Shown here piece by piece: positions 12,560 to 12,690 of a stretch of 64,000 nt of DNA (position 1 is its first letter; every line of letters starts with the position of its first letter). The DNA is from Escherichia coli (GTDB taxonomy: Bacteria > Pseudomonadota > Gammaproteobacteria > Enterobacterales > Enterobacteriaceae): assembly GCF_050920415.1 (NCBI RefSeq), contig NZ_CP169309.1, one strand, 5' to 3'. The translations under genes and the position numbers were made by a program. The notes beneath the pieces are model-generated. The model searched no databases. It saw only the letters and a list, made by a program, of their open reading frames with translations, and was not told where the DNA came from.

Positions 12560-12690
12560 CTCTAAATAATTCAAGTTGCAGGAAGGCGGCAAGCGAGTGA
12601 ATCCCCAGGAGCTTACATAAGTAAGTGACTGGGGTGAGCGAACGCAGACGCAGCACATGCAACTTGAAGTATGACGAGTATAACTGGCGC
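12560..12690. repeat. ERIC / IRU intergenic repeat
   Basis: Contains gtgaatccccaggagcttacataagtaagtgactggggtgagcg core flanked by imperfect inverted arms (caagttgca ... tgcaacttg); a second copy in inverse orientation occurs at ~33955-34075. Confidence 0.8.

Follow-up and report, generated by a model that had tools for sequence, protein, structure and literature searches.

The spacer downstream of panC in this Escherichia coli strain raises three connected questions: whether the palindromic sequence within it is an ERIC (IRU) element, how such an element came to lie there, and whether it affects the panBC mRNA. The locus was studied within a window of 64,000 nucleotides, which is the whole stretch of DNA that was analysed. 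A sequence-only reading had described the panC-yadD spacer as convergent, and the gene ends agree; panC (+) ends at 12551 and yadD (-), now annotated as rpnC, ends at 12772, so that the spacer measures 220 bp in the window. The features of the locus are collected in Table 1. The only open reading frame that crosses the ERIC, one of 100 aa at 12428-12730 (-), starts in the spacer, spans the whole element and runs antisense into panC; no Pfam family was found for it, and it was discounted as a gene, being in all likelihood spurious. A promoter scan of the panC-rpnC spacer gave one weak site only, at chance level.

Table 1. Positions of genes, ERIC elements and hairpins in the window, with the evidence for each
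Feature	Position	Strand	Evidence or remark
panC (pantoate-beta-alanine ligase), upstream gene	11700..12551	+	Pfam Pantoate_ligase, E 2e-106
panC stop codon, TAA	12549..12551	+	4 nt upstream of ERIC
Left terminal inverted-repeat arm, A/U-rich, UCUAAAUAAUUCAAG in panC-sense RNA	12555..12580	+	
Full-length ERIC/IRU element, 127 bp including both terminal TA	12556..12682	+	alignment to ERIC copies
Left copy of duplicated TA	12556..12557	.	empty alleles with single TA
Conserved ERIC core, 44 nt, GTGAATCCCCAGGAGCTTACATAAGTAAGTGACTGGGGTGAGCG	12597..12640	+	exact match
Right terminal inverted-repeat arm	12658..12683	+	
Right copy of duplicated TA	12681..12682	.	filled/empty allele alignment
Terminator-like hairpin (12685-12707) with tail ATTATTAATT	12685..12717	+	scan and folding
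Perfect 7-bp hairpin ACGTCAT-GGCG-ATGACGT, downstream of rpnC, outside ERIC	12724..12741	.	
yadD, now annotated rpnC (YhgA-like), convergent neighbour	12772..13680	-	Pfam Transposase_31, E 4e-87
Second ERIC copy, aceF-lpd spacer, more degenerate	33944-34070	-	

The ERIC core that the sequence-only reading had seen in the spacer was found at 12597-12640 with all 44 of its 44 nucleotides exact, against an expectation of 0 from 100 dinucleotide-preserving shuffles. With the ERIC-PCR primer sequences taken from PMC6066780, the reverse complement of ERIC1R (12597-12618) and ERIC2 (12619-12640) were located back to back, 22/22 each; the + strand of the element is the orientation in which ERIC2 reads forward. 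The inner palindrome of the core region is formed by 12603-12616 and 12621-12634, and the inverted arms said to stand beside the core are likewise present as terminal arms of 26 nt, in which 12555-12580 pairs with 12658-12683 at 85% complementarity. Alignment to an ERIC consensus, which the same reading had named as its check, gave 125-126 of 127 positions identical to a consensus drawn from seven E. coli and E. albertii copies, among them the window copy and its E. albertii ortholog; the other consensus loci in E. coli are yafP, yeiS-preT, ybhJ-ybhI and cusC-cusF. The element had been placed at 12560-12690, a location that stands, although its exact ends were a few bases off, the element proper being 12556-12682. 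Copies 94-98% identical to the window ERIC were found in 5425 of 5426 E. coli genomes (median, 7 megablast places per genome). The spacer sequence is thus a canonical full-length ERIC, a member of the family rather than a variant of it. The second copy in the window, in the aceF-lpd spacer, has a central core that is perfect over 32 nt and degenerate arms.

Comparison of filled and empty alleles defined the insertion site to the base. The empty alleles of KO11FL and ATCC 25922 read AATACT-TA-ACTGGCG, and the window reads AATACT-TA-[element]-TA-ACTGGCG; over the wider junction, GGCGTAATACT-TA-ACTGGCGC in the empty state corresponds to GGCGTAATACT-TA-[123 bp]-TA-ACTGGCGC in the window, and the difference between the two is exactly the element plus one TA. 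Because the TA is duplicated here and single in the empty alleles, the insertion is of the TA-duplicating MITE type, and it is owing to this insertion that the panC-yadD spacer of the strain is 220 bp rather than 73 bp. ERIC has been treated as a MITE, with TIRs, a TSD and TA termini (PMC2229807, PMC3184786, PMC10969869, PMC3049150), and TA duplication is listed for it in reviews (PMC2229807, PMC3184786); no cognate autonomous element or transposase is named for it in the reviews (PMC2229807, PMC3184786, PMC10969869). The window element shows the features of a bacterial MITE, namely TIRs, a TSD, the lack of coding capacity and presence/absence polymorphism. The ERIC, a non-autonomous miniature inverted-repeat element, integrated at a TA 4 nt past the panC stop codon, just upstream of the presumed panC terminator hairpin, and it is probably no longer mobile.

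To describe how the site varies, the ERIC, extended by some 60 bp of flanking sequence at either end, was used as query against 5426 complete E. coli genomes. Comparison of presence and absence across strains and species had also been put forward by the sequence-only reading, and the outcome was a clean polymorphism: the panC-rpnC site carries an ERIC of any form in 427/5426 genomes (about 8%) and no ERIC in the remaining ~92%, and K-12-type genomes are among those lacking the copy. The 127-bp form, contiguous and at least 99.2% identical, accounts for 18 genomes, and a long form (+71 bp, or +78 bp with a 7-bp duplication) for about 409, among them O157:H7, O55:H7 and assorted others; the uninterrupted element of the window is therefore the rarer state at the site, 18 versus about 409 genomes. 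The spacers without ERIC differ among themselves. In those of ATCC 25922 (L015, 684-854) and EFF60 (L016, 684-881) there is a partial fragment of transposase/Rpn-like type or else a small hypothetical open reading frame, so that the region downstream of rpnC varies in structure in several ways.

Hairpins are expected in a convergent spacer, and from that location alone the match could be read as a chance palindrome or as a terminator structure that belongs to the panC-yadD spacer itself. Such a reading has next to no chance of being right: it leaves the exact 44-mer, with none expected, unaccounted for, about 92% of E. coli genomes are without the ERIC at the site, the two empty alleles that were read show a clean single TA instead, and near-identical copies stand at unrelated loci (a median of 7 places per genome).

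The long forms were observed at several loci. At the panC site of O157:H7, O55:H7, OkiPb01688 and Escherichia sp. E1V33 the ERIC is interrupted by a 71-bp insert after GCGAGTG, to the left of the core; a second type of insert, of ~78 bp, occupies the mirror position on the right, after GAGCGA, and the two have the same three-hairpin layout in the same orientation. Long ERIC forms were seen at the panC site (L002, 659-729; L003; L012), at yeiS-preT (L010), near ybfA (L013) and downstream of rpiA (L014), where the ERIC of E2348/69 carries both inserts. Short and long states each occur, in different strains, at the panC and yeiS-preT sites, and the 71-bp type was found in 615/5426 genomes, almost always as one copy. 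These modules of 71-78 bp come and go within ERICs already resident at several loci, and might represent a mobile or convertible unit nested in them. A comparison of L013 with L002 at first suggested compensatory changes in the second of the hairpins that the 71-bp insert forms; this was rejected, as the two changes do not pair together. Long forms with internal insertions of ~70 bp were reportedly described by Sharp in 1997 and in the abstract of Wilson and Sharp from 2006.

The chromosomal background of the short form is distinctive. Over panBC (window 10891-12551), identity to the window is no more than 80-90% for 4974 of 5440 records, and identity of at least 94.9% was found only in the 18 genomes with the 127-bp ERIC; the aceEF of the window, unlike its panBC, matches nearly every E. 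coli genome at 97.5-98% identity. Since the genomes are the same 18, the short ERIC is carried by a panBC haplotype that is rare and very divergent. Nor does the window panBC come closer to E. albertii (about 90%) or Escherichia sp. E1V33. The gene panC is very diverse in E. coli as a whole, with 91-97% identity between the alleles sampled and differences of 3-8% among those of the strains other than the window's; the panC of O157 is 96.5% identical to the empty KO11FL allele versus 92.0% to the window. When clustering of ERIC-bearing alleles by flank sequence was looked for among the sampled alleles, none was found. The idea that one haplotype carries the ERIC was rejected on this ground, and recombination around a single insertion was preferred.

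Beyond E. coli, one genome per bacterial species was scanned with the right junction GAGTATAACTGGCGCTACGG as query, and matches were obtained in the E. albertii type strain, with the 127-bp form, and in Escherichia sp. E1V33, with the long form; in both, the site, orientation and junctions are those of the window. A diagnostic base further distinguishes the copies at this site, for GGCGGCAAG is present in all five panC-site copies examined, which share orientation, TA and junctions, whereas GGCGACAAG stands at this place in the four canonical copies from other loci, and GGTAGCAAG in the degenerate one of aceF-lpd. The shared GGCGGCAAG, together with the same site, orientation and junctions, argues for a single old insertion that now segregates on minority haplotypes of E. 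coli. Since filled alleles fail to group by flank sequence, a single insertion must have been followed by recombination around it.

The window and E. albertii elements differ at 2 of 127 positions (98.4% identical), and their flanks differ by 9.0% (binomial P about 5e-4). We considered whether the ERICs of E. coli, E. albertii and E1V33 might instead be independent recent insertions into a hot-spot TA, which would explain an element identity of 98.4% against about 91% in the flanks, with its P of about 5e-4, and would also suit filled alleles whose flanks fail to cluster. Independent arrival would, however, have had to give five copies alike in orientation, TA and junctions, all with the GGCGGCAAG base in place of the GGCGACAAG or GGTAGCAAG of other loci; moreover, the conserved block reaches beyond the element, into the last 70 bp of panC (97.1% conserved between the window and E. 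albertii) and into the terminator stem, which is also unusually conserved. Independent insertion is on this evidence very improbable, and a single ancestral event is the reading retained. The slow divergence of the ERIC may reflect selection, gene conversion among copies, or a local recombination tract. That the panC-site ERIC is actively kept near consensus, as a cross-species polymorphism on recombining haplotypes and not as a passive relic, seems to us rather unlikely.

The position of the insertion bears on its transcription. The terminator-like hairpin and tail at 12685-12717 are presumed to be the panC intrinsic terminator; the hairpin is also present in empty alleles, where it stands directly after the panC stop codon. 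Folding gave pair probabilities of 0.85-1.0 for its stem with the ERIC present, and the empty allele forms this hairpin too, so the insertion is predicted to leave the terminator hairpin intact. Lying between the panC stop codon and this hairpin, the ERIC is inside the presumptive panBC 3' UTR and would be transcribed as part of it. Its RNA folded with -54.2 kcal/mol in panC sense (+) and -47.0 in antisense (-), and folding of the whole spacer gave z = -7.0 against shuffles. In the divergent aceF-lpd ERIC, five compensatory double changes relative to the canonical copies preserve this ERIC hairpin. Transcribed along with panBC, as the last part of the mRNA, the panC-site ERIC would be expected to form a hairpin that is long and imperfect, with about -54 kcal/mol.

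What the sequence-only reading had stated about the family, that its copies form part of transcribed 3' UTRs and are able to change how stable an mRNA is, matches what has been reported for Yersinia (PMC2229807, PMC3184786, PMC10969869), and orientation-dependent effects involving RNase E have been described (PMC2229807, PMC3184786, PMC10969869, PMC3049150). In the model of De Gregorio et al. 2005, as given in reviews, certain stop-adjacent orientations make an RNase E site of the distal arm accessible when ribosomes keep the hairpin from closing (PMC2229807, PMC3184786, PMC10969869, PMC3049150). At the panC site it is the 5' arm, the one near the stop codon, that is rich in A/U; two further E. 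coli ERICs next to a stop codon were examined, those behind ybhI and cusC, and both are oriented the other way round with respect to the upstream gene. The orientation classes that De Gregorio et al. are reported to have drawn up in 2005 were mapped tentatively onto the panC-site copy, on the basis of three stop-adjacent examples.

By analogy with the stop-adjacent ERICs of Yersinia, the element could be an RNase E-dependent destabiliser of the panBC mRNA, in that a ribosome terminating at the panC stop codon would keep the hairpin open and expose a cleavage site in the distal arm. The geometry allows for this, as the element begins 4 nt past the stop codon, so that its outer left arm would be covered by a terminating ribosome, and both the mechanism and its dependence on orientation are described in the reviews (PMC2229807, PMC3184786, PMC10969869, PMC3049150). 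The arm that would be covered is nevertheless the A/U-rich one, which is the better RNase E-type target and here lies proximally rather than distally, and the ybhI and cusC copies are oppositely oriented. Destabilisation therefore appears unlikely, and for these same two reasons a neutral or mildly stabilising 3' hairpin would be likelier than RNase E-triggered decay. The effect of the panC-site ERIC is most likely none, or a mild change in the stability of the 3' end of the panBC mRNA. Taken as a whole, the reading in which an ERIC inserted at the TA after the panC stop codon, as a single old event with little or no effect, is in our judgement very probable.

Scanning of the spacer with Rfam at gathering thresholds produced no match, and the scans show no sign of an ERIC family in the library. 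A permissive scan aligned V_AS5 (RF02818, Vibrio RNA AS5, an antisense RNA) end to end, positions 1-129 of the model falling on 12555-12678 (49.8 bits, E 2e-10, below the curated gathering threshold of 96 bits), and that family has the same long-hairpin architecture as the window ERIC. We regard the two as related, V_AS5 being an ERIC-type element from another genus, and not the window ERIC as a member of the V_AS5 family. Wilson and Sharp, in an abstract of 2006, reportedly noted ERIC-type elements in vibrios, and the V_AS5 match fits their presence there. Weak partial matches to Ysr49, a Yersinia sRNA, and to isrH (model positions 160-216) were also recorded over 12555-12711, and the scans suggest that several curated sRNA families may contain ERIC-derived sequence. 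Elsewhere in the window, matches above gathering thresholds were to PssrA, tp2, STnc40 and naRNA4 (56498-56587 -, 38811-38924 +, 50782-50851 - and 50198-50275 -); PssrA (105.5 bits) is by its description a plasmid-encoded Shigella sRNA, here in an apparently chromosomal context.

The family is said to have been described under the names ERIC, IRU and RU-1 by Sharples and Lloyd in 1990, by Hulton, Higgins and Sharp in 1991, and by Wilson and Sharp in 2006. The panC-site element resembles it in its 127 bp, core, primer sites, terminal inverted repeats, TA termini with duplication and multi-copy nature, as well as in an intergenic position inside a probable transcription unit; it has no structural difference from the family, and a single base, that of GGCGGCAAG, sets the panC-site lineage apart. 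With the ERICs of Yersinia it shares the family, the stop-adjacent position and, presumably, co-transcription with the upstream gene, but its orientation, unlike that of the Yersinia ERICs tied to RNase E, apparently does not put the A/U-rich arm distally. The REP/BIME sequences of E. coli are, like ERIC, intergenic transcribed palindromic repeats, often in 3' UTRs, and are thought to affect 3'-end stability; REPs differ from ERIC in being 20-40 bp long, G+C-rich, without TA duplication and unrelated in sequence (PMC3184786). A literature search for an ERIC at panC/yadD returned only unrelated papers.

The finding of an ERIC at the panC site is correct, and the element is ordinary and of an already known kind; the O157:H7 copy is presumably among the strain-specific ERIC sites that are already known. 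Beyond correct annotation it matters little. According to the predicted fold, the ERIC gives the panBC 3' UTR an additional stable hairpin, and the panC-rpnC site, with its empty, 127-bp and long states, could serve as a three-state typing marker and constitutes a natural experiment on a 3' UTR ERIC and mRNA stability in E. coli. An element that diverges more slowly than its flanks also bears on the old question of why ERICs are so conserved across species; were the panC-site ERIC indeed actively kept near consensus, this would suggest either selection on an RNA function in the 3' UTR or ongoing gene conversion among ERICs.
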